Below are positions 2,922 through 49,451 of a DNA stretch of 64,000 nt, in pieces (the first letter of the stretch is position 1; each line of letters opens with the position of its first letter). Under the pieces are notes generated by a model. The model was not told the origin of the DNA. It saw only the letters and a program-made list of their open reading frames with translations, and ran no database searches. The position numbers and the translations under genes are program-made. Source of the DNA: Phycisphaerae bacterium (lineage in GTDB: Bacteria; Planctomycetota; Phycisphaerae; SM23-33); NCBI GenBank assembly GCA_009783465.1, contig WRDM01000008.1, forward strand, positions 2,943 through 66,942. The letters are read 5' to 3'.

Positions 2922-3998
2922 TTCTTGTGGGGTCATATCGGGGGAGTAGTGGATGATCGCGCCGCGTTTGGCGGGGGAAGAGAAGAGGTAGTGGGCGATC
3001 AAGCCCAGGCGGTAGACGTCGGCGGTAGAGGTGGGCGAGGGCTGGGCGGCGGTGTCGCAAGCGGCGGCCATGGCGGCGAGTGTGGCGGCGAGTTGTTCGT
3101 CGGTGGGGGTTTGGCTGAGGGGGGCGATTTTCGTCACGGCGGGGCCGACGGCGAGGAAGACGTCCCGCCATTTTTTTGACGCCGCCGGTTGCACGAGAAT
3201 GAACCGCCACTGCTCCATCGGCCTGACGTGGGCGTAGTCTTCGTGGTCCAGCGTGCGAGTGCGGTCGAGTCGTTTTTTCAGGCCTGCCGCCCGCTCGAAT
3301 TCCGTCGCGTCGGCGGCCTGCCGCATGCGTTCCCGCAGCCGCGAGAGGAATGGTTCGCGTTGCCCGCTTGCGAAGGCGGCCGCCTCGGCGACCTGCTGGC
3401 GATATGGCTCCAGCGAGATCGCGCCGTGGCAAGGCCCGGTGCATCGGCCCATTTGCCAGTACGTGCACGCGGGCCCGTGGGGCGACTGCCGCAGGCACGC
3501 GACGTCGCGGCAAAGGTCGAACAGATCCTCAATGGTTTCGATGAATCCCCGGGCGGCCTGTCCGCTGGGAAAAGGCCCGACGGTCAGCCCGGCCTGCCCC
3601 GGCTGGCGGGTCCGCGAAAAATGCGGGAACTCCTCCGACGGGTCCACGTGCACCAGCCAGGCACGCCGCCAGGAGAGCAGCTCCGCGAACGAGGCCGGGA
3701 ACAGCGATCGGGCCAATTCCAGAAACGTCGCGTCGGCTTCCCAGTGGCTCGGCGTGAGCGTGTAGAGAATTTTCCGCGTGATCTGGCGAAGATCGGCGGA
3801 TTTGCGCCGCGTGTCGTCGGCAGGCTCGGCCAGGCGATGGCGAAGCCGGGCGCGAAGATCCGCCGCCGTCAACAGCAGAATGGGCGCGTCGCGTTCATCG
3901 GCCAACAACAGCACACCGCGCTTGGCGGGAATGTCCGCCAACGCCTCCTCACTCAACGGCGGCTCCACGGCGATTGCATGGGAAAACAACGTGTTCAT
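2862..3998 (-). CDS. UvrC N-terminal-like protein (degenerate GIY-YIG region, Cys-rich segment, UVR-like helix)
   Basis: ORF 2862..4103; the ATG at 3998 ('MNTLFSH') lies outside the hairpin repeat. 'CLRQSPHGPACTYWQMGRCTGPC' resembles the UvrC Cys cluster. 'EFERAAGLKKRL' is UVR-like. Confidence 0.5.
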   Translation of the reverse strand: MNTLFSHAIAVEPPLSEEALADIPAKRGVLLLADERDAPILLLTAADLRARLRHRLAEPADDTRRKSADLRQITRKILYTLTPSHWEADATFLELARSLFPASFAELLSWRRAWLVHVDPSEEFPHFSRTRQPGQAGLTVGPFPSGQAARGFIETIEDLFDLCRDVACLRQSPHGPACTYWQMGRCTGPCHGAISLEPYRQQVAEAAAFASGQREPFLSRLRERMRQAADATEFERAAGLKKRLDRTRTLDHEDYAHVRPMEQWRFILVQPAASKKWRDVFLAVGPAVTKIAPLSQTPTDEQLAATLAAMAAACDTAAQPSPTSTADVYRLGLIAHYLFSSPAKRGAIIHYSPDMTPQELRAFVESVGEKRLAGQQGE

Positions 3999-4030
3999 GG
4001 GTTTCGTTGCTCGATGGTGAAAACGTGCCG

Positions 4031-4208
4031 CGCGTTCGAGGGAACCTAGCCAGTAGCCAATAGCCAGTAGCCAATAGGTATGGGTAAATCTGTGGCGGAT
4101 CACACGATCCTGATTTTGACCACGCTCGTATCCATTCCCACGATCACTGCCAATTTCGCCGTTGTCTTTCCTTACCTACTGGCTACTGGCTTGGTTCCCT
4201 CGAACGCG
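4031..4208. repeat. HS-A hairpin element with TTCGAGGGAAC clamp; loop inverted relative to copies 1 and 3
   Basis: Clamp CGCGTTCGAGGGAACC / GGTTCCCTCGAACGCG. The arms are heptad arrays. The loop blocks are present as reverse complement. Confidence 0.85.
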
Positions 4209-7523: not shown

Positions 7524-8456
7524 TTATTTTTCGGGGCTGGCTTGGGTGAACAGTCGCGTTTGTCCGGCGTGGAGGGGCAGGGAGATCGCCCGGCCTGGAT
7601 GCACGACGGATTCGTCGGCTCGGAATTCGGCCATGGTCTGGTAGGCGGGCACGAGCGGGCGGTCGGTGGCCCAGTGCGTGCTTCGCAGGGCGGAGATGGC
7701 GGTGAGTTCGCCAGCTCCCGCGCCGCGGACGGCGGGCAGGCGTTGTTCACGAACGTCCGGCTGTGAGTGCAGATACGTGGCGGCGAAGATCGTCAGCCCC
7801 GCTGCCACGGCGACGGCGGCGGCCACACGCCACGCCGGCGCGCGGATCAGCAATGTGGCGGCCAACGCCAGCAGACCCAGCGACAATAGCGTGATCGCGT
7901 TGCGTTTCACGTCGGCAGGCCAGTGGGCTCGTTCGTAATCGGCTTGGATAAACTCGCGGCGGACGTGCTCGACTGGCCATTCGATGGTTGTCTCCGTTAC
8001 GGCGAGGGGGGCGGCGTGAGGCGACTCCTCGGGCAGCAGACTCACCGCGTACGGCTGTGTGTGCGAAAACGGAGGCAGCGGCAGATTCACGGTTTGCCGC
8101 GTACTCGCCGGCACGACGCACGGCCAATAAATGTTCGGCCCGCCTCCGGCGGGCGCCAACAACACCGCGCGAATCGTGTGCGCCGTCGTGTTGTGCACGG
8201 TGAGCGTGGCGGGGCGGAAAAACGTTTCCGTCGCCGCCGTCGAGTCCGCCGCCGGCGCGAGCGTAACGGTGACGGGATCGGCCGACGATTGCGCCGACGT
8301 GGATGCGGTGAGGGTCAACGCAATGCACAGGATGACAGTGTAGACAAACGATTCAACAATGGAAATGGTTGTCGGTATGTGTCGATCAAGCGGATTGTGT
8401 TTTCGTCTTGAAAACAACCGATTGGCCTCCCCGGCCTCGCGTTGGATGGCCGGCAC
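7524..8456 (-). CDS. hypothetical secreted/membrane protein
   Basis: Maximal ORF starting at GTG 8456. A TTG at 8417 would give a plausible signal peptide ('FSRRKH...ILCIALTLTASTSAQS'). C-terminal TM segment. Start uncertain. Confidence 0.5.
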   Translation of the reverse strand: MPAIQREAGEANRLFSRRKHNPLDRHIPTTISIVESFVYTVILCIALTLTASTSAQSSADPVTVTLAPAADSTAATETFFRPATLTVHNTTAHTIRAVLLAPAGGGPNIYWPCVVPASTRQTVNLPLPPFSHTQPYAVSLLPEESPHAAPLAVTETTIEWPVEHVRREFIQADYERAHWPADVKRNAITLLSLGLLALAATLLIRAPAWRVAAAVAVAAGLTIFAATYLHSQPDVREQRLPAVRGAGAGELTAISALRSTHWATDRPLVPAYQTMAEFRADESVVHPGRAISLPLHAGQTRLFTQASPEK

Positions 8457-8521: not shown

Positions 8522-9949
8522 TTACACGTTCAATTCGCTTTGTTGTCCCAGTTTTCCGGCGTATTTTTCCAGGATCGGCGCGATTTCGCCGGTGAGGAAT
8601 TCGTCTACCTGCTCGGGTGATCGGCCGATGTAGGCGCGGGGTTCCAGCACGGCGTTGAAATCGACGCGGTCGAATGCGTCGTCGTTTTGCAGGCGGTCCA
8701 GCAGGTCGTTGGGGTGGCCCCAGTTGACCTGTTCGGCCGAGGCGAGGCTGTGCACGCGGATGCGTTCGTGCAGTTTCTGCCGGTCGCCGCCGGCCCGGAC
8801 GGCCGCCATCAGGATGTTTTCCGTGGCCATGTACGGCAGCTCCGCGACGAAGTTCTGCGCGATGATATTCGGGTGCACCACGAGTCCCTGCGCCACGTTG
8901 AGCACGATGCGCAGGCAGGCGTCGGCGGTGAGGAAGGCCTCGGGAATCGCCAGCCGCTTGTTCGCCGAATCGTCGAGTGTGCGTTCGAACCACTGCTCGG
9001 CGGCCGTCTGGAGCGGCTGCGCGCTGATGCCGATCAGCCATCGCGCCAGCCCCGTCGCCCGCTCGCATCGCATGGGGTTGCGTTTGTACGCCATCGCGGA
9101 CGAGCCGACCTGGCTGGAGCCGAACGGTTCCTCGATTTCCCGGCAGTGGGACAGCAGGCGGATGTCATTGCAGAATTTGTGGACGCTGGCGCCGATGCCG
9201 CCCAGGGCGGCCGCGATGGCGGCGTCGATTTTCCGGCTGTAGGTTTGGCCCGTCACGGGGCAGACGCGCGCGAAACCGAATCGCTGCGCCACCGTGCGAT
9301 CGAGCCGCTTGACCTTCTCGTGGTCGCCGTCGAACAGGGCGAGGAAACTCGCCTGCGTGCCCGTGGTGCCCTTGACGCCGCGGAATTCGAGCGTCTCGAG
9401 GCGGTGTTCGAGTTCGCGCAGGTCCATGAGGAAATCCTGACACCAGAGGGTCGCGCGTTTACCGACGGTCGTGAGCTGGGCGGGCTGAAAGTGCGTGAAG
9501 GCCAGGCAGACCGTGTCGCGCTGCTTCCGCGCGAAGTCCGCCAGCGTGGCCGCGATGTTCGCGAGTTGGCCGATCAGGAGGCGCATGCCTTCGCGCATCA
9601 CGATGAGATCGGTGTTGTCGTTGACGTACTGGCTGGTGGCGCCGAGATGGATGATCGGTCTGGCGGCGGGGGCGGCGTCGCCGAACGTGTGAATATGCGC
9701 CATCACGTCGTGGCGGAGCCTGCGTTCGTGATGGCTGGCCGCGGCGAAGTTGATGTTGTCGAGATTCGCCTCCATCTGCGCGATCTGTTCGTCGGTGATG
9801 TCCAGGCCCAGTTCCTTCTGGCACCGGGCCAACTCCAGCCACAGCCGCCGCCACGTGGAGAATTTTTTCTGGTCGCCGAAGAGCGTCCGCATCTCCTTGC
9901 CGGCGTAGCGAGTTTCGAGCGGGCTGGTGTACGTGTTGCGATCTGGCAT
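8522..9949 (-). CDS. purB: adenylosuccinate lyase
   Basis: 475-aa ORF. 'SPLETRYAGKEMRTLF' and 'SSAMAYKRNPMRCE' (fumarate-lyase signature) are typical of PurB. Confidence 0.9.
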   Translation of the reverse strand: MPDRNTYTSPLETRYAGKEMRTLFGDQKKFSTWRRLWLELARCQKELGLDITDEQIAQMEANLDNINFAAASHHERRLRHDVMAHIHTFGDAAPAARPIIHLGATSQYVNDNTDLIVMREGMRLLIGQLANIAATLADFARKQRDTVCLAFTHFQPAQLTTVGKRATLWCQDFLMDLRELEHRLETLEFRGVKGTTGTQASFLALFDGDHEKVKRLDRTVAQRFGFARVCPVTGQTYSRKIDAAIAAALGGIGASVHKFCNDIRLLSHCREIEEPFGSSQVGSSAMAYKRNPMRCERATGLARWLIGISAQPLQTAAEQWFERTLDDSANKRLAIPEAFLTADACLRIVLNVAQGLVVHPNIIAQNFVAELPYMATENILMAAVRAGGDRQKLHERIRVHSLASAEQVNWGHPNDLLDRLQNDDAFDRVDFNAVLEPRAYIGRSPEQVDEFLTGEIAPILEKYAGKLGQQSELNV

Positions 9950-11874: not shown

Positions 11875-11972
11875 GAGGCTGTAGGCTGAAGGCTGTAGGC
11901 GCAGCACAGGCTTATGCGAGTTTAGACCCAACGAGACATAAGCCTCTCCCTACAGCCTACAGCCCACAGCCT
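11875..11972. repeat. HS-C hairpin element (CTGTAGG heptad arms)
   Basis: GAGGCTGTAGGCTGAAGGCTGTAGGC...GGCTTATG-loop-CATAAGCC...CCTACAGCCTACAGCCCACAGCC. Starts 1 nt after the portal stop codon. Confidence 0.85.
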
Positions 11973-13937: not shown

Positions 13938-14094
13938 CAGCCAATAGCCAGTAGCCAATAGCCAATAGGTACGGAACGATATTGGCGAAAGGCAATGAAT
14001 GTGGGAGTTGGCATAAATCTCAAACAGATCACGATCGTGTGATTTTCGACAGGTTTCACCATACCTATTGGCTACTGGCTGCTGGCTACTGGCT
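13938..14094. repeat. HS-A hairpin element, copy 3
   Basis: Arms 13938-13969 and 14061-14094. Loop blocks are the same as in copy 1. Confidence 0.85.
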
Positions 14095-16284: not shown

Positions 16285-16286
16285 CA

Positions 16287-16390
16287 GACTGTAGGCTGTA
16301 GGCTGAAGGCTGTAGGCTGTAGGCGCGGGCTTATGAAACATTAGGCCTAATCCTTCATAAGCCTGCCCCCACAGCCCACAGCCCACAGCC
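16287..16390. repeat. HS-C hairpin element
   Basis: 5 CTGTAGG-type units, core GGCGCGGGCTTATG...CATAAGCCTGCC, then CACAGCC x3. Confidence 0.85.
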
Positions 16391-19225: not shown

Positions 19226-19453
19226 AAAGCCACTAGCCACCAGCCACCAGGGCTTGCGTGACGCGTAGGTGAAGGAAAACCATTTGCCAGAGGGAAACGT
19301 TTCGTTGACTCGTTAACTGGTTAACTCGTTAATTCGGCGCCAAGTCAACCAGTTAACGAGTTAACCAGTTAACGAAAATGTTCCCTCGAATCTGCGACAT
19401 GATTTCACCGCCGAGCAGTCGAAAAACCTATGTGCTACGTAGCTGGTGGCTTT
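19226..19453. repeat. HS-B hairpin (GCCACTA/GCCACCA arms) containing a nested HS-E (GTTAAC) hairpin at 19290-19387
   Basis: Outer arms 19226-19252 and 19441-19453 (right arm short). The inner element is flanked by GAGGGAAAC / GTTCCCTC. Confidence 0.7.
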
Positions 19454-20593: not shown

Positions 20594-20805
20594 GCCACAA
20601 GCCACCAGCCACAAGCCACCAGGGCTTGTGGGGCGCGACGGTAAATTTTTCCATCGCGGTGGCGAGAGAGGTCCCGATGCTTCGCGGATACGGCGGTCAA
20701 GGCGGATAACTTACGTTTCGAGTCAGCGAAGCATCGGGACCTCTCTCTCTCGGACAAACGGAACGATTTTCCATTCATGCACCGCAAACCCTTGTCGCTT
20801 GTGGC
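20594..20805. repeat. HS-B hairpin with nested inner hairpin (20664-20748)
   Basis: Arms GCCACAAGCCACCAGCCACAAGCCACCAGGG / CCCTTGTCGCTTGTGGC. Inner hairpin GAGAGAGGTCCCGATGCTTCGC...GCGAAGCATCGGGACCTCTCTC. Confidence 0.8.
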
Positions 20806-20844
20806 TTTGTACCTGCGTGACGAACCACCCGAGAGGAGGGCAGC

Positions 20845-21159
20845 ATGATCAGCGTGATCACGGATTTGACGAGCATGGGGGCGGCGGGGGTGATGGGGGC
20901 GATGTGGCTGTGGGAGCGGCGTGCATCGGCCCAGCGGGAGCGGGAGTTGACCGAGTCGCACGGGCGGATCCTGCGGGACGAGCAGCGGTTGGACAAACTC
21001 ACGCACGTCGTGGAGCAGGCGACGGCGGCCATCACCCGGTTTCAGCAGACGCAGCAGGAGATGAGCGAGTTGATCAAGCACGTTCTTAAGGAGATTCATC
21101 ATGGCGGCACAACGGAAACTCGAAATCAGAAACCCGAAACTCGAAACAAACCCCAATGA
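20845..21159 (+). CDS. small N-terminal-TM coiled-coil protein (i-spanin/holin-like)
   Basis: SD GAGAGGAGGG. TM 'MGAAGVMGAMWLW' followed by a coiled coil. The last ~15 codons are encoded by a repeat arm. Confidence 0.45.
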   Translation: MISVITDLTSMGAAGVMGAMWLWERRASAQRERELTESHGRILRDEQRLDKLTHVVEQATAAITRFQQTQQEMSELIKHVLKEIHHGGTTETRNQKPETRNKPQ

Positions 21160-21342
21160 ACGGCGGAAGTTCGAAATCCAAAGCATGAAATCCGAAACAA
21201 ATTTCAAACAACAAATTCGAAACTCGAAACGGCGCCGCCAAACATCATGCCTGCGCTCCAAGGCGTCATGCGTTACCGTTTGGAATTTGCTGTTTGGGTC
21301 ATTGGGGTTTGTTTCGAATTTCGAATTTCGAATTTCGAATTT
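21114..21342. repeat. HS-F hairpin (GAAACNC / CGAATTT heptad arms)
   Basis: Left arm GGAAACTCGAAATCAGAAACCCGAAACTCGAAACAAACCCCAATGA. Right arm TCATTGGGGTTTGTTTCGAATTTCGAATTTCGAATTTCGAATTT. Confidence 0.75.
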
Positions 21343-21370
21343 ATCACGCCTGGCGATCGTGGCGTGTCTT

Positions 21371-21829
21371 ATGACGTTGCTGGGCGGCTGTGCGGCGCCG
21401 ACGGCCACGCTGGATTTGATTGCCGTCGCCCGCGCGGGATTGGCCGACGCGCGGGATGCGCAGCGGCAGTCGCACGAGACCTTGATACGGCAGTTCTCTC
21501 AGCAGCAGGCGGCGCTCGACGCGGCCTTCGACGCCGACGTCCGGCTGGCGGAGGCCGGGGCGATCCGCGACGCGCAGGGCAACCCCGTCGCGCTGGACGG
21601 GCGATGGGTGATCGCCGCCCGCAAAGGCTATGTGGCCGCCCGCGACGCCGTGGCACAACAGGCCGTTGCCGCGCAGGCCGCCCACGCCACGCGGCTGGAC
21701 AACCTCGCCGCCGCCGACGACGCGCTCCACATGGCCTGCACGCTCATCATCGAACAACAGGGCCTGAACATCCGCATGCGGCAGTACCTCCAGAAAGCCA
21801 CAAGCCACAAGCCACTAGCCACAAGGTAA
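21371..21829 (+). CDS. helical lipoprotein
   Basis: Lipobox 'LLGGC'. Start ambiguous (GTG 21359 or ATG 21371). The C-terminal 'KATSHKPLATR' is encoded by a repeat arm. Confidence 0.45.
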   Translation: MTLLGGCAAPTATLDLIAVARAGLADARDAQRQSHETLIRQFSQQQAALDAAFDADVRLAEAGAIRDAQGNPVALDGRWVIAARKGYVAARDAVAQQAVAAQAAHATRLDNLAAADDALHMACTLIIEQQGLNIRMRQYLQKATSHKPLATR

Positions 21830-21947
21830 GGATAGTCTCTGGCTAAAAGACAATGATCGCGGAAATGGCTGTACCTGTTCGATGAACCAGGATCGGCTGA
21901 TGGGTAACAGGTTTTGCCATACCTGGTGGCTAGTGGCTAGTGGCTTT
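21794..21947. repeat. HS-B hairpin
   Basis: Arms AAAGCCACAAGCCACAAGCCACTAGCCACAAGGTAAGG / CCATACCTGGTGGCTAGTGGCTAGTGGCTTT. Confidence 0.85.
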
Positions 21948-26115: not shown

Positions 26116-28428
26116 TCACGCCGATTTCGGCATCGCCGGGCTCAGATGCGTCGGGATGGCGGTGCCTTCGTTGAGTTTTCGGCGGTTGGCGATGAGGGCT
26201 TCGACGATCAGCAGGAGGATGACGAGGGGCAGGAATTTGTCCCACCACGGGGCGCCCTGGCTGGCTTCGGCGGCGCGTTCCTGGACGTCCTTGAGGGACG
26301 AGCCGACGAAGACGGTGTTGAAATCGCGGTCGTCGCAGGCGTTTTGCATTTCCTCGGTGCCCAGGGCGAGCAGGAAGGATTCGTCGCCGTCGGGGTTGAC
26401 GGCGAAGGCGCCTTCGGATCGTCGGGTGGCCAGGTCGTCGGGGGCGTCCTGGAGGGTCCAGGTGTAGACGCCCGGCAGGGCGTTTTCCTTCGACAGTCGG
26501 ACGGTGTATCCGGTGGCGTTGTCGAGTTCGGCGGTCAGGGGCAGGATTTTTTTGTCGGGCGTGGTGACGGCGAAGGTGACGGTATTGGGCCTGGAGGAGT
26601 CGGCGCGGAGCGGGCCTGTGCTGATGGGCACGTTCGTCTGCGCGAGGAAGATTTGCTGGGACTGCATTTGTTGCGGCGCCGCCAGGGCCATGCGATAGAG
26701 CATGGAGAAGAAGACGGGGCTTCCGCCGGCACAGAAGTTGGACCATCTCGGCGAGGCGGTGGTGGGGAAGACGACGGCGCGGCCCTTGCCGAAGGGCCTG
26801 GTGGCCACGAGGGGCGATCCGCTGCGGAGGGTCATGATGGCCGAGGCGGGCGCGACGACGTCTTCGATGGTGTAGTATCGGTTGACCATCATGACGCGGT
26901 AGCTTTCGGCGTTGGGGTACAGGCCGGCCAGGAAGGGGCTGGTCAGGTCCATGAGTTCGACGTCCTCGGCCATCGCGCCCGGCCCGACGTCGCCCTGGGC
27001 TCCGCCGATTTTCCCCGGCAGCAGCGGCCCCATGCCGGCGATGCCCAGGTCGTCGTAGAACATCTTATTGTAATTCGCCACGTCGCACTCGGGGCCCAGG
27101 AAGAACAAGGCCGTGCCGCCGGCGTCCACGAAGTCGATGACGCACTGCGCCTGCTCGTCGGTGAAGTGGTCCACCTCGTTGAGCAGCAGCATCGACGCGT
27201 TGGTCAACGCCTCCGGGCCGAAATCCGCGATGTCGATGACGTCCGGCTCGATCGACCACGGGCGATTGACGTTTCGCAGCCCGTCCAGGGCGGGCTTGAG
27301 ATAGGTCGTGCCGTCCAGGCCGCTGCCGTCCTCGCCCGCGTGGCCTCTGACGATGACCGCCCGCACGCGATCGCCGATCTCCAGCGCGAAGTACCTCCGG
27401 TTGTCGGTGTCGAGCTGGTCCACCAGCGAATTGGCGTTGCCGGCTTCGCTGATGATGGCCACGCTCACGCTGCCCGAGAACATGTCCGGCCGCGTGAACG
27501 TGTGGCGGAACTGCCGCGTCTCCTTGCCCATCGGCGGCAGGGTGATCGTCTGGCGGTCGGAGGCCGACATGCCCTCGATGTGCAGGTCGACGTTGACGCG
27601 GATGTTTTCGTTGGTGGAGTTGGTCAGCGTGACGTTGAACTGGATGGGTTGATCGGCGATCCGCCGCCCGGCGATTTCCAGATCGGTCACGCCGACGTTC
27701 ACGGCGTTGGGTTGGCCGACATTGACGATGAGCACGTGGACGCCGTTGTCGCGGGCCAGTTGGAGCACGTTGTCTTCGGCTTCGCCGAGCAGATCGTCGA
27801 TGCTTTCGCGTTGCAGGTCGGTGAGGATGTAGACGGTTTTTTCGGGCGTGGATCCGACGTTGGACAACTGGGCGACGGCCTCGCGCACGCGGGCGGCGAT
27901 GGGCGTTCCCTTGCCGTAGCCGACCGTCATGGTTTTGAGCGGCTCTTCGATGCTCTTGATGTTGCCGGTGAGGTTGACGGATCGTTTGTCGTCGTGGGTC
28001 AGCAGCAGGGCGGCTTCCTTGGGGCGTTTTCGTTCGTCGTCGTTGAAGAGCAGTTCGCGGGCTTCGGTGCGGGCCAACTCCAGGCGGGAGCCTTTTTCCT
28101 CCAGCGTGTTCATGGAGTAGCTGTTGTCGATAATGACGACGCAGGCGGCGTTGTTGGCGTTGAACCACTCCTTGCCGCCCTTGAAAAGCGGCTCGGACAC
28201 CACGATGGCCAGCAGCCCCAGCATGAGCGCGCGGATGATCAGCAGCAGCCAGTGCTGCAAGTGCCGCCGCCGGGCGGTCTTTTCCATCGAGAGCTTCAGG
28301 AACCGCAGCGTCGGGTAGTACACTTCCTGCGCGCGGACCGACGAGAGCAGGTGCAGCACAAACGGAATCGCCGCGGCCAGCAGGCCCAGCAACATCGCCG
28401 GGGCGCCAAATTGTAAGCCTTCAAACAT
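26116..28428 (-). CDS. BatA-N-terminal/VWA-domain membrane protein
   Basis: 'IPFVLHLLSSVRAQEVYYPTLRFL' N-terminal domain. MIDAS-like 'IDNSYSM'. C-terminal TM segment. Confidence 0.8.
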   Translation of the reverse strand: MFEGLQFGAPAMLLGLLAAAIPFVLHLLSSVRAQEVYYPTLRFLKLSMEKTARRRHLQHWLLLIIRALMLGLLAIVVSEPLFKGGKEWFNANNAACVVIIDNSYSMNTLEEKGSRLELARTEARELLFNDDERKRPKEAALLLTHDDKRSVNLTGNIKSIEEPLKTMTVGYGKGTPIAARVREAVAQLSNVGSTPEKTVYILTDLQRESIDDLLGEAEDNVLQLARDNGVHVLIVNVGQPNAVNVGVTDLEIAGRRIADQPIQFNVTLTNSTNENIRVNVDLHIEGMSASDRQTITLPPMGKETRQFRHTFTRPDMFSGSVSVAIISEAGNANSLVDQLDTDNRRYFALEIGDRVRAVIVRGHAGEDGSGLDGTTYLKPALDGLRNVNRPWSIEPDVIDIADFGPEALTNASMLLLNEVDHFTDEQAQCVIDFVDAGGTALFFLGPECDVANYNKMFYDDLGIAGMGPLLPGKIGGAQGDVGPGAMAEDVELMDLTSPFLAGLYPNAESYRVMMVNRYYTIEDVVAPASAIMTLRSGSPLVATRPFGKGRAVVFPTTASPRWSNFCAGGSPVFFSMLYRMALAAPQQMQSQQIFLAQTNVPISTGPLRADSSRPNTVTFAVTTPDKKILPLTAELDNATGYTVRLSKENALPGVYTWTLQDAPDDLATRRSEGAFAVNPDGDESFLLALGTEEMQNACDDRDFNTVFVGSSLKDVQERAAEASQGAPWWDKFLPLVILLLIVEALIANRRKLNEGTAIPTHLSPAMPKSA

Positions 28429-28430
28429 TC

Positions 28431-28550
28431 GTTAACTCGTTAACTGGTTGATTCGTTAACTCGCTAACGGGTCGACTAGCTAACTGATTGACTAGTTAAC
28501 TAGTTAACTAGTTAACTAGTTAACTAAAGCGTTTCCCTCGAACCACGGGT
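28431..28550. repeat. HS-E element (GTTAACNN octad arrays) with a right-hand GTTTCCCTCGAAC clamp
   Basis: GTTAACTC GTTAACTG ... then GTTAACTA x4. Arm pairing is imperfect. Confidence 0.65.
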
Positions 28551-28559
28551 TCCATATCA

Positions 28560-29465
28560 CTATCGTCTGGCCATGTTTCGCCGGGCCAGGTAATTCAGCA
28601 GCATTTTCTCATACGGCGTGTCGGTGGGCGTCAGGACGTATTCCACGTGCCGGTTGGAGCATTCCTTGCGGTAGCGGTCGATGAACGCGTTCATCTCGGT
28701 CAGGTACTGATCGCGAATGAACCGCGGGTCCACCTGGAGCTTCTCGTTGTTCTCCATGTCCACGAACGTCATGACCTTCTTGAACGGGAAATCCAGCTCC
28801 GACGGGTCCATCAGGTGGAACAGGATAATCTGGTGCTTCTTGAACACAAAGTGCTGAATGGCCTTGAGGACCTCGCTCTGCTCGTCGTAGAGATCGCTGA
28901 TGATGATGACCAGGCTGCGCTTGCCGAGCGTGGCCGCCAGTTCGTGAAACACCGGGCCGATCTTCGTGTCCTTGCCGGGCTTGAGTTCTTCGAGATTTTT
29001 GAACATCCGGTCCAGGTGGGCCGGCGTGGAGCCGGGGGGCATGTGGAACTTCATCTCGTTGTCGAAGGCGATCATGCCCACCACGTCCTGCTGTTGGCAC
29101 ATCAGGTAGCTCAGGCAGGCCGACAGAAAACAGCCGTACACGAACTTGGTGGCCGTTCCGCCGTACTTATAGCCCATGGACCCTGACACATCCAGCAGGA
29201 TGTACGTTCGCAGGTTGGTCTCCTGCTCGTACTGCTTGATGTAGTAGCGGTCGGAGCGGGCGTAGGCGACCCAGTCGAGGTGGCGGATGTCGTCGCCGGC
29301 CACGTATTCGCGGTGCTCGGCGAACTCGACGCTGAACCCCTTGTGCGGACTGCGGTGCAGGCCCGAAATAAACCCCTCCACCGCCGACCGCGCCAACAAG
29401 CTGATATTCCGAAGCCGTCCAATTTTGTCCGGCTCGTAGTACGTGTATTTGTTTTCGTCAGCCAT
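28560..29465 (-). CDS. DUF58 domain protein (MoxR/VWA-associated)
   Basis: 'HRSPHKGFSVEFAEHREYVAGDDIRHLDW' and 'LLDVSGSM' are the DUF58 hallmark. Confidence 0.85.
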   Translation of the reverse strand: MADENKYTYYEPDKIGRLRNISLLARSAVEGFISGLHRSPHKGFSVEFAEHREYVAGDDIRHLDWVAYARSDRYYIKQYEQETNLRTYILLDVSGSMGYKYGGTATKFVYGCFLSACLSYLMCQQQDVVGMIAFDNEMKFHMPPGSTPAHLDRMFKNLEELKPGKDTKIGPVFHELAATLGKRSLVIIISDLYDEQSEVLKAIQHFVFKKHQIILFHLMDPSELDFPFKKVMTFVDMENNEKLQVDPRFIRDQYLTEMNAFIDRYRKECSNRHVEYVLTPTDTPYEKMLLNYLARRNMARR

Positions 29466-29493
29466 GGTTGTATTTTACCAACAAGTACCCCGC

Positions 29494-29806
29494 AGCCACA
29501 AGCCACAAGCCACCAGCCACAAGGTATTCGAAATTCGGTGCTCCCATCGTAGCAAAATTTTCCGCGATTGGCATGCCGAATAGCGAATACTTTCAGGGCC
29601 ATCGCATCGTAAAAGGCCCATTTTTCGGCTGTAGGCTGTGGGCTGTAGGCTGTAGGTTGATTTTCCTTTGCGAAACATCGGTCGCAAAGGCATGTCTCCT
29701 ACAGCCTACAGCCCACAGCCTACAGCCTTTTCGCGAAAAAACGCGGAAATTTAGATGCGATGGCCCTGGCGAATACCTTGTGGCTAGTGGCTGGTGGCTT
29801 GTGGCT
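29494..29806. repeat. four-level nested hairpin (HS-B outer, HS-C inner)
   Basis: Level 1: 29494-29527/29770-29806. Level 2: CAGGGCCATCGCATC/GATGCGATGGCCCTG. Level 3: CTGTAGG arrays 29626-29727. Level 4: CCTTTGCGA..TCGCAAAGG. Confidence 0.85.
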
Positions 29807-30380
29807 GGGTCTTCAGGAAAAACCGCACCGCCATGTCGCCGTACGCCTTGACCCGTGTGCAGGTCAACGGCCCGAGGGTGTCCGGGACGTCGGCGTGTTC
29901 GTCGGTTCGCAGGACGACGCAGCCGTCGTTTTCGGACAGTTTCGGCGCCAGCGGCATGAAAATCGCGTCAGCCGCCCGCTGCCAGTCCCACTGCCGCGCG
30001 TCGGCGTAGGGCGGATCGACGAAGGCGACGTCCACCGGGGCCTGCACCTGCGTCAGCCACTCCGTCAGCCGGGCCTCCACGTCGCCGCGCCAGACCGTCG
30101 CCCGGTCCGTCGCGCGCAGGTCGCGCAGATTCCGCGCCAGCCGCTCCAGAACGCGCGGATCCTTCTCGGCAAAGAAACACCGCGCCGCGCCACGCGATAA
30201 ACACTCAATCCCCATCGTGCCCGTGCCGCAGTACAGGTCAATCACCGTCTGGCCATGCAATTCCTCGCCCAGCATGGCAAAGAGCGACTTCTTCACCAGT
30301 CCCGTCACGGGTCGGGTGATACTCTTGCCAGGCGGCGGCAAAATCTCCCGCCCACGAAATTCACCAGCCAGGATGCGCAT
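29784..30380 (-). CDS. rsmD: 16S rRNA (guanine966-N2)-methyltransferase
   Basis: 'RPVTGLVKKSLFAML', 'DLYCGTGTMGIECLSRGA' and 'FVDPPY' motifs. The last 7 codons lie in a repeat arm. Confidence 0.8.
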   Translation of the reverse strand: MRILAGEFRGREILPPPGKSITRPVTGLVKKSLFAMLGEELHGQTVIDLYCGTGTMGIECLSRGAARCFFAEKDPRVLERLARNLRDLRATDRATVWRGDVEARLTEWLTQVQAPVDVAFVDPPYADARQWDWQRAADAIFMPLAPKLSENDGCVVLRTDEHADVPDTLGPLTCTRVKAYGDMAVRFFLKTQPQATSH

Positions 30381-30430
30381 GCTACATGGAACGTTTGGCG
30401 CGGAGGGGAGTTTCGGAATTTTCGATACGA

Positions 30431-30748
30431 AAAGCCAGTAGCCAATAGCCAGTAGCCAATAGGTATGGAACGTCTCTGGTTATGAGGTAGTGTAAGCGGG
30501 AATGGTTACGCCTGTCGGGGTGGTTGAGTTTCCTGCACGACGAAAGCATCTGGTTTTGTGAGGAAAACAACCGATTATCCTCCCCGGTCTCGTACGGCAG
30601 TGCCGGTTCTTCCGCGCGAGACCGGGGAGATCAATCGGTTGTTTTCCACATCGAATCCGCACAGGCCAGCAACACGACAGTCACCACAAAATCATCCATC
30701 ATACCTGCTGGCTACTGGCTGGTGGCTATTGGCTTTGTTCCTTCGAAC
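30431..30748. repeat. HS-A hairpin with nested I-family hairpin (30562-30647)
   Basis: Arms 30431-30461 and 30701-30736. Inner hairpin GGAAAACAACCGATTATCCTCCCCGGTCTCG...CGAGACCGGGGAGATCAATCGGTTGTTTTCC. Confidence 0.8.
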
Positions 30749-31073
30749 GAGTGGTTCGCCTTTGCCGTTATGTACACGGAGACCGAATAAAAAGTGCCCC
30801 GGTCGGGCAAGACCGGGGCTGGGGGCATCAGTGCCGGAACTGCAAGGGGAGGCAGAACCGGCTGCGGTTGGGTACGTTTGGGGTCGCCTTCGGAGGCGTG
30901 AAGCGGTGGGAGGTTCCCGTCGCGTGTCTGGGCGTCATGTCCATTCCGCGTCGGCTCGTCTCGGTTACGGCTGTTGCTTCAATCGAATAGTACGATATAA
31001 TCCCGACACGAGCAAAATTCCGCGACGCTTTTACGATGGTTTTATTTTGCTGCCTTGGGAGACATATTCCGTG

Positions 31074-31295
31074 ACAAGCCACAAGCCACTAGCCACCCGG
31101 CTCCGCCAAAGCTACGTCGGGCAAGCAAGCCACAAGGTATGGCGAAATCTTTTTCGCGCCAGACGATCCCCGTTTCGGCTGGTGGTATCGTTGTTTCCGC
31201 TTTTATTGTCGTTTCGCCCTGTGCGTCCCTTACCTTGTGGCTTGCTTGCCCGACGTAGCCTTGGCGGAGCCGGGTGGCTAGTGGCTTGTGGCTTG
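31074..31295. repeat. HS-B-related hairpin with ~65-nt near-perfect arms
   Basis: Left arm ACAAGCCACAAGCCACTAGCCACCCGGCTCCGCCAAAGCTACGTCGGGCAAGCAAGCCACAAGGTA. The right arm is its reverse complement. Confidence 0.85.
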
Positions 31296-31862
31296 CTGTT
31301 CTCCGGCTGCGCGAATTACACGACGCCGATTGTGTCGGAGTCCGACCTGACGCCGGCGGAGCGGAATTTCAATGTGGTGTGGCGGGGCACGATGGACACG
31401 CTGACGGAGTTGGGGTTCACCGTCGATCAGCAGGACCGCCGCGAGGGCCTGATGGCCACGCTGCCCCTGACCGGGCAGCAGTGGTTCGAGTTCTGGCTCC
31501 AGGATGCCGCCACGCCGCGCGACGTGGCCGAGGGCTCGCTTCAGACGATCTACCGGACCGTTCGCGTGTACGTCGAGCCGGTGACCGGCGTCGAGGGCCA
31601 GTTCGCCGCGCGCGTCGAGGTGATCGCGTCGCGTTCGGAGCGGACGGTCGCCCCGATGACCAACACGGTGCAGGCGTACAATCTGTTCGCGATTCCAGGC
31701 CAGCCGTACCGCATGGAGTCCATGTTGATCCGCCAGAGCGTCGAGGACATTCCCGAGGCGAAGGTCAAACGCATCGGCCGCGATGTCGGGCTCGAATCGA
31801 ACATCGCCATGGCCATCGCCGTCCGCGTGGCGGGAAGACAGGAAGCCGCGACAAGCGACTAG
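31242..31862 (+). CDS. lipoprotein whose signal peptide is encoded by a repeat arm
   Basis: A TTG at 31242 gives 'LARRSLGGAGWLVACGLLFSGC' (n-region, h-region, lipobox). GTG 31281 is an alternative start. The ORF upstream of 31242 is repeat sequence. Confidence 0.5.
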   Translation: MLARRSLGGAGWLVACGLLFSGCANYTTPIVSESDLTPAERNFNVVWRGTMDTLTELGFTVDQQDRREGLMATLPLTGQQWFEFWLQDAATPRDVAEGSLQTIYRTVRVYVEPVTGVEGQFAARVEVIASRSERTVAPMTNTVQAYNLFAIPGQPYRMESMLIRQSVEDIPEAKVKRIGRDVGLESNIAMAIAVRVAGRQEAATSD

Positions 31863-38631: not shown

Positions 38632-38764
38632 CGTTGGTTCGAGGGAACGGTTTTAGTTGACTGGTTAACTGGTTAACTGGTTAACTGGTGGCTTCGCGAA
38701 TGAATTAACTAGTTAACCAGTCAACCAGTTAACTAGTTACCATCATGATTCCCTCGAACCAACG
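38632..38764. repeat. HS-E hairpin with full TTCGAGGGAAC clamp
   Basis: CGTTGGTTCGAGGGAAC, then GACTGGTTAACTGGTTAACTGGTTAACTGG ... TTAACTAGTTAACCAGTCAACCAGTTAACTAGTTA, then TTCCCTCGAACCAACG. Confidence 0.85.
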
Positions 38765-42585: not shown

Positions 42586-42711
42586 AGCCACAAGCCACTA
42601 GCCACAAGCCACCAGGTAAGGAATGACGACGGCGAAAACGAAATTTTTGTTTCGATTCGCGGCAGGTTTTCCATACCTTGTGGCTTGTGGCTAGTGGCTT
42701 GTGGCTAGTGG
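42586..42711. repeat. HS-B hairpin
   Basis: AGCCACAAGCCACTAGCCACAAGCCACCAGGTAAGG ... CCATACCTTGTGGCTTGTGGCTAGTGGCTTGTGGCTAGTGG. Confidence 0.85.
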
Positions 42712-44678: not shown

Positions 44679-44800
44679 CGCGAATCTCCCGGCGCAGCCG
44701 CCGCGCGGGCGGCATAGTACGCCGTAGTTTCTATTGTCGGTCGATCCCGCGGCTTGGTTTATTAGGAAATATAAGTAGAAGGAATATTGTGAAGAGGCGG

Positions 44801-44895
44801 TTAGACTGTTAGGCTGTTAGGCGCGGGCTTATGCGAATTCAGGCCGAAATGCTCCATAAGCCTCTCCCTAACAGTCTAACAGCCTAACAGTCTAA
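44801..44895. repeat. HS-D hairpin (CTGTTAGG octad arms)
   Basis: TTAGACTGTTAGGCTGTTAGGCGCGGGCTTATG...CATAAGCCTCTCCCTAACAGTCTAACAGCCTAACAGTCTAA. Confidence 0.85.
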
Positions 44896-46666: not shown

Positions 46667-46750
46667 AAACGAGCCACAAGCGACAAGAGCAGGAGAAGCT
46701 TGTCTTTCAAAGCGTTCGCATGGAGCGAGAACATGAAATAAGACAAGACA

Positions 46751-47206
46751 GTAGCGTTGCAGGTGTGTCATTTCGACGTTGAAAACAAATCGAACGGCCT
46801 TCCCGGTCTCACGTGGAAGGGCCGGCGCACAGCCGCGAAGCGGCGTCGTGTATAGCCTAGGGCGAGCCGTACTCGGCGAGCCCTGGGGCAGGCATTGGGG
46901 CAGTTCGTTTATCGTGCCTGACGCCACTGGCCGAGGTCACACCGTCGCGCGAAGGCGGCCTCGAACGGCCCGCACGTTCCCCTGTGATGCCATTCGAAGC
47001 CGTACAGGCCCGCGTGCGCGGCCTCGGCCAGTGGCGTCAGGCACGATGTGGGAACAAAAATAGCTTGTCCCCAGGGCTCGCCGAGTACGGCTCGCCCTGG
47101 GCTATACACGACGCCGCTTCGCGGCTGTGCGCCGGCCCTTCCACGTCAGGCCGGGGAGGCCGCTCGATTTGTTTTCAACGTCGAAATGACACACCAGCAA
47201 CGCTAT
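46751..47206. repeat. ~456-bp multi-level palindrome (I-family termini)
   Basis: Arms of about 140 nt (46751-46890 and 47065-47206). Inner palindrome 46913-47045 (CGTGCCTGACGCCACTGGCCGAGG / CCTCGGCCAGTGGCGTCAGGCACG). Confidence 0.85.
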
Positions 47207-47276
47207 AGTCTTACAAAACGGACGCAGCTTGCGCTTGTCGCTGGTCAGTAACTGCCTAACCAAAGGATTTATAACA

Positions 47277-47705: not shown

Positions 47706-47892
47706 AAAGCCACAAGCCACTAGCCACCAGGTATTGCAGCGTTTGCTGTCATCACAGGGCACACTGCCGGTGTGCGAATGAAAACGTGATCACGAGTCCG
47801 CGAAGCATCGAGACCACTCTCTCGAACGAGAGGAGCGGTTTTACCGTCGTGCCGCGAAAACCCTGGTGGCTAGTGGCTTGTGGCTAGTGGCT
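47706..47892. repeat. HS-B hairpin
   Basis: AAAGCCACAAGCCACTAGCCACCAGGTA ... GGTTTTACCGTCGTGCCGCGAAAACCCTGGTGGCTAGTGGCTTGTGGCTAGTGGCT. Confidence 0.85.
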
Positions 47893-48464: not shown

Positions 48465-48583
48465 AAAGACTGTTAGCCTGTTAGGCTATTAGCCTGTTAG
48501 GCGCAGGCGTACGGAATGTTGGGCCAAATCTTTCATAAGCCTGCGCCTAACAGTCTAATAGCCTAACAGGCTAACAGTCTTTT
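48465..48583. repeat. HS-D hairpin between convergent ppiB and marC-family genes
   Basis: AAAGACTGTTAGCCTGTTAGGCTATTAGCCTGTTAGGCGCAGG ... CATAAGCCTGCGCCTAACAGTCTAATAGCCTAACAGGCTAACAGTCTTT. Confidence 0.85.
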
Positions 48584-49201: not shown

Positions 49202-49451
49202 GGTTCGAGGGAACAGCTTAGCCACAAGCCACCAGCCACCAGGGTTTTCGTGTGTCCGATGGTGAAAGTGAACATCACGTACGAGAGAGGGGACTCAATG
49301 CTTCGCAGACTCGGGAGGTAATTCACAGGCCTTGCGTTTCGTGTCTGCGAAGCATTGGGACCATTCTCGCCAGCGTGAGGTGTGGTTTTACCGTCGCGCT
49401 GCGAAAGCCCTGGTGGCTAGTGGCTGTTGGCTAGTGGCTTTCGTTCCCTCG
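49202..49451. repeat. HS-B hairpin with TTCGAGGGAAC clamp and nested inner hairpin
   Basis: GGTTCGAGGGAAC, arms 49219-49244 and 49408-49440, then CGTTCCCTCG. Inner hairpin ...CAATGCTTCGCAGAC...GTCTGCGAAGCATTG... Confidence 0.85.

Follow-up and report, generated by a model that had tools for sequence, protein, structure and literature searches.

How does a spacer between two bacterial genes come to hold four inverted repeats, one inside the other? This question is raised by a 64-kb stretch of contig WRDM01000008.1 (Phycisphaerae bacterium; the whole stretch is called the window here), in which the spacer between a gene for an RsmD-like methyltransferase (rsmD) and a DUF58 gene is occupied by a hairpin nested like a Russian doll. 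The hairpin is best explained by two nested acquisitions of non-autonomous repeats in this spacer, a MITE (a miniature transposable element bounded by inverted repeats) of the ISAs1 family having entered an older repeat of a local family, called family A. The probability of this reading is put at about 0.85.

The initial annotation had described four concentric inverted repeats at 29494-29806. The repeat search recovered all four levels within 1-2 bases of their expected positions or exactly there, and they are strictly concentric (Table 1). The nesting was also reproduced by the minimum-energy fold in all three runs, namely RNA of the plus strand (-212.3 kcal/mol, against -107 +/- 5 for shuffled sequences; z = -19.5), RNA of the minus strand (-211.6 kcal/mol; z = -19.7) and single-stranded DNA (-124.4 kcal/mol; z = -18.5). 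The concentric inverted repeats are far beyond chance. That both strands fold equally is expected of a DNA palindrome, and is therefore no evidence for an RNA. The structure is asymmetric, with about 63 nt (29531-29593) between Levels 1 and 2 on the left and none on the right, and the left and right sequences between Levels 2 and 3 are unrelated. Within the window only Levels 1 and 3 belong to repeat families, the sequences of Levels 2 and 4 being unique.

The order of events could be read from sister species, defined as the members of the 90%-identity DUF58 cluster in sample JGI 3300010167 / ENA ERZ27257304; the window itself belongs to an 85-kb contig of that sample, k141_2390043. GTDB species representatives had been considered for this comparison and were rejected as too distant, the closest being only 76% identical in DUF58. 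All members of the cluster keep the order rsmD-DUF58-BatA. In L086/L087 the spacer holds a single-level hairpin (heptads-AAGGTATTCGC|GGTTCGATATGCCAATCGCGGAACATTTTGCC...GGAATTTCAAATACCTTGTGG-heptads), which is the un-nested state that the initial annotation had suggested looking for in relatives, and the site is found without an insert (...AAGGTATTCGC|GGTTCGATATGCCAATCGCGG...). The minus strand of the window follows the L086 spacer and is broken after GTATTCGC by an interruption that reads CAGGGCCATCGCATC...GATGCGATGGCCCTG, followed by AAA and a second GTATTCGC. When 29583-29768 (186 nt) were removed from the window, pairwise global alignment with L086 gave 152 identical positions out of 177 (86%) and two gap columns; this alignment replaced a four-way MAFFT alignment of the spacers, in which the heptad arms had been mis-aligned to each other. 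The 175-bp inner element is absent from the spacers of L086/L087, L082 and L084. Since Level 1 is kept in sister species and Levels 2-4 are not, the spacer has long held Level 1, and Levels 2-4 were inserted later, in the window lineage only.

The inserted segment carries the marks of an insertion sequence (IS). Its left and right flanks match at 10 of 11 positions (direct repeat D8), and L086 holds this sequence once. A query made of the end, CAGGGCCATCGCATC(N0-1)TAAA, hit more than 103 metagenome stretches of JGI among the matches listed, and within that set the paired ends fell into two size classes, 1.19-1.34 kb and 113-396 bp. An exact 10-bp target duplication flanked 25 of 44 paired copies; no common target sequence was seen among the duplications. 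One 1337-bp copy, in L088, encodes a protein of 374 aa that matches the NCBIfam model NF033564 'ISAs1 family transposase' (391 bits, cutoff 70) as well as PF13808 and PF01609. The IS-type ends, the flanking duplication and the single copy in L086 together identify Level 2 as the terminal inverted repeats of an ISAs1-derived MITE. The segment 29594-29768 has ISAs1-type ends and an empty site in relatives, is small, non-coding and multicopy, and is flanked by a duplication of the length typical of the family if one substitution or a one-base offset is assumed for the window copy. Full-length ISAs1-family elements with the identical 15-bp end CAGGGCCATCGCATC also occur in L097, L100, L126, L156, L172, L176, L177 and others from many metagenome samples, in a set that the scan itself selected for that end; their transposases are only 34-50% identical to that of L088.

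Evidence on the content of the insertion comes from a second copy on another contig of the same sample (L134, 8728-8881), which is 98% identical to 29594-29768, Level 4 included. The sole differences are indels of 14 nt and 7 nt, the L134 copy having two heptads fewer in the left arm of Level 3 and one fewer in the right. In about 250 kb of DNA from the lineage, Level 4 was found only within these two copies. This near-identity indicates that Levels 2, 3 and 4 move as one unit, and a count of four independent levels is thus not supported. The indels of whole heptads indicate that heptad number changes by whole units, which is consistent with replication slippage. The second copy also bears on the idea that the palindrome arose in situ from a unique sequence, through template switching or through fold-back (snap-back) replication. 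Such an origin would fit the perfect arms of Levels 2 and 3 and the uniqueness of Levels 2 and 4 in the window, but it is hardly conceivable for a structure whose Level 2 is a widespread IS end, whose whole Level 2-4 unit recurs elsewhere, and whose sides are asymmetric and, between Levels 2 and 3, unrelated.

Level 1 is a short copy of the multicopy family A, with heptad arrays as arms. Members of this family consist of heptads, AGGTA[AT]GG, an asymmetric core (GGC[GT]AAA..GCA[AG]TGA..GCGG[GA]A..GGATCG..TGAT..), CCATACCT and heptads again, and the window contains at least seven copies related to it, among which both orientations occur. The stretch 29531-29582 is colinear with the core in L086 (...GCCAATCGCGGAA.ATTTTGC...) and aligns with other family-A copies. 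At the same spacer L082 holds a full-length family-A copy, whose right end (..CACCGAA.(G/T)TCGAATACCTTGTGG) is in common with the window. The spacer of L084 is occupied by another family, with GCGACAA/GTGACAA arms, most closely related to an element that L086 carries at a different locus. The MITE entered the window copy at the base of the right arm of Level 1, not in its loop, and for this reason 63 nt of old core are left on one side only.

These comparisons give a history of three steps, the first two of which are shown by them. A family-A repeat with AGCCACN heptad arms, AAGGTA.. / ..TACCTT and an asymmetric core was in the spacer before the sister species split; the copy here overlaps the 3' end of rsmD and gives it a stop codon. 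In the window lineage only, the 175-bp MITE then inserted into the base of the right arm and duplicated its target GCGAATACCTT; the duplication displaced the old core to one side, which accounts for the lopsided doll. The hairpin of CTGTAGG heptads with its 9-bp apical stem was probably already aboard the MITE when it landed, because the near-identical copy elsewhere has the same interior. The insertion of one element inside another, which was one of two origins suggested by the initial annotation, is thus borne out by the empty site in L086, the flanking direct repeat, the IS-type ends and the second copy. The doll was made by ordinary DDE transposition into a repeat already in place, and the concentric pairing is a by-product of stacked terminal inverted repeats and not a designed four-stem RNA.

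Several points weigh against this history. The flanking repeat in the window can be read as 11 nt of which one is mismatched, or as 10 nt shifted by one base, compared with a clean 10 bp in other copies. No ISAs1 transposase gene was present in any of the contigs examined from the same sample, and neither a target duplication nor a conserved target was seen at the ends of the heptad-armed elements. Copy numbers, and the nesting statistic given below, rest on nine MITE copies (the 64-kb window plus about 190 kb of sister DNA). The origin of Level 3 inside the MITE, finally, is a step that we infer rather than demonstrate.

Table 1. Features of the nested hairpin, its neighbours and related elements (positions in the window unless a contig is named)
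Feature	Position	Strand	Remarks
Level 1 arms	29493-29530 / 29770-29807		38 nt, 95% complementary; inverted repeat I2
Level 1 left arm	29493-29530		AGCCAC[A/C] heptads, then AAGGTATTCG; I2; same arm at orthologous spacer of L086 and L082
Residual outer family-A core	29531-29582		asymmetric bulge with its own small side hairpin
Target-site duplication, left copy	29583-29593		GCGAATACTTT; direct repeat D8
ISAs1-derived MITE (Levels 2+3+4)	29594-29768	+	175 bp, non-coding
Level 2 left arm, MITE left terminal inverted repeat	29594-29608	+	CAGGGCCATCGCATC; 15 nt
Level 3 arms	29627-29656 / 29698-29727		30 nt, 100% complementary; inverted repeat I4
Level 3 left arm	29627-29656		GGCTGT[A/G] heptads; central hairpin cassette of MITE
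Level 4 apical stem-loop	29665-29673 / 29682-29690		9 nt perfect, 8-nt loop; inverted repeat I17; 29665-29690 = CCTTTGCGA-N8-TCGCAAAGG
Level 3 right arm	29698-29727		CCTACAG / CCCACAG heptads
Level 2 right arm, MITE right terminal inverted repeat	29754-29768	-	15 nt, perfect complement of left
Target-site duplication, right copy	29769-29779		GCGAATACCTT; also base of Level 1 right arm
Level 1 right arm	29770-29807		CGAATACCTT, then GTGGCT[A/G/T] heptads; I2; holds rsmD stop codon
RsmD-like methyltransferase	29784-30308/30380	-	PF03602, 4.9e-39; upstream neighbour of hairpin
DUF58 gene	28560-29465	-	PF01882, 1e-43; downstream neighbour of hairpin
Further heptad/octad elements (18 in total)	1-158, 4034-4205, 11876-11972, 13939-14094, 16286-16390, 19228-19453, 20594-20807, 21115-21345, 21795-21945, 28431-28543, 30433-30748, 31074-31295, 38637-38759, 42586-42711, 44795-44895, 47707-47892, 48470-48577, 49203-49451		
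GGTTCGAGGGAAC / GTTCCCTCGAACC module, window	4034/4194, 38637/38748, 49203, 28532, 30737		
GGTTCGAGGGAAC / GTTCCCTCGAACC module, relatives	L134 8662/8991; L135 9203/9597; L162 11073/11165		
DUF58-BatA spacer	window 28431-28526; L084 10907-10942; L082 5118-5245; L086 9643-9782		
Site upstream of rsmD	window 30433-30734; L082 ~3150-3330; L086 ~7880-8000		
Elements in distant Planctomycetota	L002 1870-1980, 5895-5985; L044 3920-4025; L040 6095-6385; L081 8125-8430; L027 1440-1575		units: L002 CGGGNTT; L044 GAGTGCG/GAATGCG; L040 AATTCGG/AAATCCG; L081 CTTGTTC; also TGAATAA

Four different central cassettes are found in MITEs of the same sample that share these ends and have a related backbone: CTGTAGG heptads with the Level 4 core, CTGTTAGN units with the core of a second family (family B), AAATCCG-type heptads, and GTTAACNN octads. 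Where MITEs with these ends come from other environments, they are without heptads. Family B has arms of CTGTAGG or CTGTTAGN around GGCGC.GGCTTATG..CATAAGCC, and its cassettes also occur 'naked' in the window, the Level 4 core being found only inside the MITE. Further families, sorted by their interior, are present beyond A and B. On contig L162 (11027-11422) two ISAs1-type MITEs are immediate neighbours, the second having entered within a few bases of the first one's end; one has a GTTAAC-octad hairpin with the GTTCGGGGGAAC module, the other a family-B octad hairpin.

This exchange of interiors is what would be expected if the layers had been shuffled by gene conversion or template switching between similar heptad arrays, in a modular recombination that needs no transposition. 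Family-A cores, which are paired with either AGCCA[AG]T or AGCCAC[ACT] arms, and orthologous spacers that hold different families (the GCGACAA type of L084 between rsmD and DUF58, the octad family B of L086 upstream of rsmD) point the same way. As an account of the whole structure this is distinctly unlikely, since DDE transposition is marked by IS-type ends, a flanking duplication and an exact empty site, as found here, and conversion would make no target duplication. The combinatorial assembly of modules, the other origin suggested by the initial annotation, is partly supported, by MITE ends and backbone that carry different cassettes and by family-A cores with two flavours of arm; it does not hold for the arrival of Levels 2-4 at this locus, which came by transposition. 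Recombination may still account for the entry of Level 3 into the MITE. The heptad hairpin could have been inserted into the backbone, or acquired by it through recombination with heptad hairpins of the lineage itself.

The initial annotation had further suggested that loops are preferred targets. Elements would then prefer the loops or apices of existing hairpins, and dolls would be built by structure-specific integration, the analogue being IS1397 and ISKpn1. Three of the nine distinct MITE copies in the lineage contigs do lie inside heptad elements, one at the base of a stem (the window copy), one in the core of another family-A element (L134, where 8662-9000 form six concentric layers) and one in a TGGCTAC heptad array (L135); none of the three is at an apex. 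Heptad and octad elements make up 33% of the non-coding DNA, so that three or more nested copies out of nine (33%) have a binomial probability of P = 0.60, and for this pair of elements nesting does not exceed what insertion at random into intergenic DNA would give, an outcome that the initial annotation had named as refuting its reading. No sign of targeted nesting of MITEs was therefore observed, in a sample that is small. The 10-bp duplications, being without a common target sequence, also argue against a preference for loops.

Support for loop targeting comes from symmetric, multi-layered palindromes that look like central insertions. At 31074-31295 an extra layer, a perfect inverted repeat of 31 nt (CCCGGCTCCGCCAAAGCTACGTCGGGCAAGC), lies between the heptads and a family-A-type centre, and L082 (2760-2850) has the element without it; the extra layer looks like a symmetric, central nesting event. 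At 19228-19453 a GTTAAC-octad hairpin lies inside an AGCCACC-type element. The third example, at 46745-47212, is a near-perfect palindrome of about 470 nt, whose 144-nt arms (94% complementary) enclose a second pair of 59-nt arms; GCGACAA heptads flank it at 46676 and 47230, and homologues occur in L130 and L120, in both orientations. Weighed with the MITE copies, these cases leave loop targeting an unlikely explanation.

Both flanking genes are as initially annotated, and on the minus strand the order is rsmD-like gene, hairpin, DUF58, BatA, all in one co-directional string. The outer element ends 28 nt from the DUF58 start codon. The stop codon of rsmD and about seven codons before it come from the right arm of Level 1 (the open reading frame, ORF, ends ...QPQATSH*), and a comparison of C-termini placed the rsmD stop codon within a heptad arm in all four sister species. 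ORFs enter heptad arms in several places (29784-29806 in the window, which is the end of rsmD; 3437-4069 and 2185-3084 in L082; 9169-9846 in L084), and automated gene calls run through whole elements, e.g. calls of 299 aa and 210 aa in L082.

The position within a co-directional gene string, the extremely stable fold, and the presence of some heptad-armed hairpin in this spacer in four of four sister species would all suit a hairpin that selection keeps as a unit of four stems, whether as a structured RNA or for regulation (e.g. as a terminator, attenuator or RNase III site). Such a function is nevertheless very unlikely. Three sister species are without Levels 2-4, the two strands fold equally, as DNA palindromes do, and the occupant is of family A in some species and of the GCGACAA type in another, so that only occupancy is conserved, and neither sequence nor structure. 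A scan of 28300-31400 detected no qualifying site of an intrinsic terminator for the large hairpin, which is followed on the gene strand by GCGGGGTACTTGTTGG and not by a U-tract; T-runs follow some other family-A copies. No promoter-like site was detected in the same scan, and a candidate upstream of DUF58 (TGnTAAAAT as -10 with a heptad-derived TTGTGG as -35) fell short of its criteria and is speculation only. With Rfam 15 at gathering thresholds a tRNA elsewhere was the sole match in the window, and the hairpin matched no known RNA family; at E<=1 there were six sub-gathering matches, three to microRNA precursors, two to bacterial small RNAs (ar35 and NsiR1) and one to a cis-element of viral origin. 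Should transcription of rsmD include the spacer, it would give a long, near-perfect RNA duplex, which could conceivably serve as a barrier between rsmD and DUF58-BatA, or as a site of processing there.

A block at about 30796-31010 (minus strand; GCCCCGGTCGGGCAAGACCGGGGCTGGGGGCATCAGTGCCGG...) is strongly conserved with L082 and L086 and resembles a small RNA gene, with a terminator-like hairpin and T-run at its 3' end (30819-30796). The only Rfam match that overlaps this block is the sub-threshold one to NsiR1 (30788-30845; 21.2 bits, gathering threshold 39; E = 0.48).

The heptad-armed hairpin is not confined to this spacer. Tandem Repeats Finder and a scan for periods of 7 and 8 gave about 33 heptad or octad arrays in the window, which form 19 hairpin elements and cover 3367 of its 9964 non-coding bases (33%, the hairpin under study included). 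The units come in at least six flavours in the window (AGCCAC[ACT], AGCCA[AG]T, [AG]GGCTG[TA], CTGTTAG[GA], GTTAACNN and TTTCGAA), and many arrays alternate two unit variants, giving a period of 14 at 100% match. A recurrent outermost inverted-repeat module, GGTTCGAGGGAAC / GTTCCCTCGAACC, surrounds arrays of different flavours, so that many elements gain a further layer (Table 1). The elements sit in tandem, convergent and divergent spacers, often 1-20 nt from stop or start codons; arrays end 1-6 nt from predicted start codons at 44895, 42711 and 28431.

About 250 kb of lineage DNA contained 50 inverted array pairs, most with gaps of 10-320 nt. An autonomous element bounded by heptad arms was considered and rejected, array pairs more than 400 nt apart being mere neighbouring elements. 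The idea that the arms provide stop codons in all three frames was likewise set aside. Of 100 arms, 31 close every frame when read inward and 24 close none, and read outward the figures are 20 and 45, which is a weak trend only; the AGCCACA arm at the present locus has no stops on one side.

Comparison of sister species that are 80-88% identical in nucleotides showed that all three spacers of the rsmD-DUF58-BatA neighbourhood differ. The DUF58-BatA spacer is empty in L084/L085 (TAA CGC ATG). Its hairpin is made of GTTAAC octads in the window and in L086 and of AGCCACAT units in L082, and stops 2 nt short of the BatA start codon. Upstream of rsmD, family A is found in the window and L082 and the unrelated family B with CTGTTAGN octads in L086; the window copy corresponds to the un-nested family-A element of L082 plus an inner hairpin of about 140 nt. 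In the rsmD-DUF58 spacer itself three species carry family A, and L084 carries the GCGACAA family. These differences reflect rapid turnover at a few permissive sites. Distant metagenome-assembled genomes (MAGs) of Planctomycetota show the same hairpin architecture, built from other, lineage-specific units (Table 1).

What is unusual at the locus is the class of the host repeat, together with a MITE that carries such a hairpin as cargo; this family is apparently undescribed, and literature searches for heptad-armed hairpins in Planctomycetes yielded no description among the papers that they covered. Stems built from tandem 7-8-nt units of lineage-specific sequence around conserved asymmetric cores, replacement of one family by another, the supply of stop codons, the lack of target duplication and the capture of hairpins as cassettes would imply a dedicated mechanism of mobilisation or maintenance other than DDE transposition, such as a single-strand or hairpin-specific enzyme or templated copying from arm to arm, and the heptad-armed hosts would then be an undescribed, clade-wide class of Planctomycetota (Phycisphaerae-like) repeats. 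We advance this tentatively and consider it possible but doubtful. If the class is a distinct mobile or structural one, it would give access to the genome dynamics of a Planctomycetota clade that is uncultured, and a natural system for how transposons tolerate and exploit long palindromes. At the present locus an exotic-looking structure of four stems resolves into two dated steps of mobile-DNA insertion, the empty site being clean, and this may serve as a worked example for annotating such MAGs, in which gene callers run ORFs into the arms.

The inner element closely resembles known bacterial MITEs. Nezha and Chunjie are named examples derived from DDE insertion sequences (PMC3184786), and like these the present MITE is short, non-coding and multicopy, with ends matching an IS, a duplication of fixed length, and both empty and filled sites; like Chunjie, it lies between genes of one co-directional string without disrupting them. 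It differs from them in its interior, which is a lineage-specific heptad-armed hairpin cassette and not a deletion remnant of the IS, and in that sister MITEs with the same ends carry other cassettes. IS1397 and ISKpn1 insert into the palindromic units of repetitive extragenic palindromic (REP) sequences (cited in PMC3184786), with a structure or sequence specificity for the palindrome loop. They resemble the present case in that a transposable element lies within a pre-existing extragenic palindrome and gives nested inverted repeats, and differ from it in that the insertion points found here vary between copies and the rate of nesting equals the random expectation.

The host elements can be compared with two groups of repeats. 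REP sequences, REP doublets forming hairpins (REPINs) and bacterial interspersed mosaic elements (BIMEs) of Proteobacteria consist of an imperfect palindrome of 20-40 nt, one end of which bears an unpaired tag, GTAG or CGTC (PMC3733652). The heptad elements are similar to them (PMC3733652, PMC3116915, PMC2817692) as abundant extragenic hairpin repeats with several families per genome, mosaic, without obvious target duplication and often at gene ends, and some heptads contain GTAG. Unlike those of REPs and REPINs, their arms are tandem arrays of 25-40 nt made of 7-8-nt units, often with a period of 14, around an asymmetric core of about 60-100 nt. The structure that defines REPs and REPINs is absent: GTAG, where present, is itself paired within the arrays, and there is none in the AGCCACA flavour found at the locus.

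The second group comprises intergenic tandem heptamers, among them the short tandemly repeated repetitive (STRR) sequences of cyanobacteria, which are tandem heptanucleotide repeats. The TAACTGA repeats of marine Beggiatoaceae most often end 1 nt upstream of start codons, with one inverted case among 170 sets (PMC4679880), and heptameric simple sequence repeats have been described in Xanthomonas and Nostoc (PMC4692102). With TAACTGA and heptameric simple sequence repeats the window arrays share their intergenic position, lineage-specific units and frequent location a few nucleotides from start codons; the GTTAACTG octad contains TAACTG. Membership of the STRR or TAACTGA type does not apply to the window arrays, which come as inverted pairs that make long stems around conserved cores, whereas TAACTGA-type repeats are direct arrays of essentially one unit. 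Unlike these, the heptad-armed hairpins come in many flavours within one genome and have the behaviour of dispersed elements.

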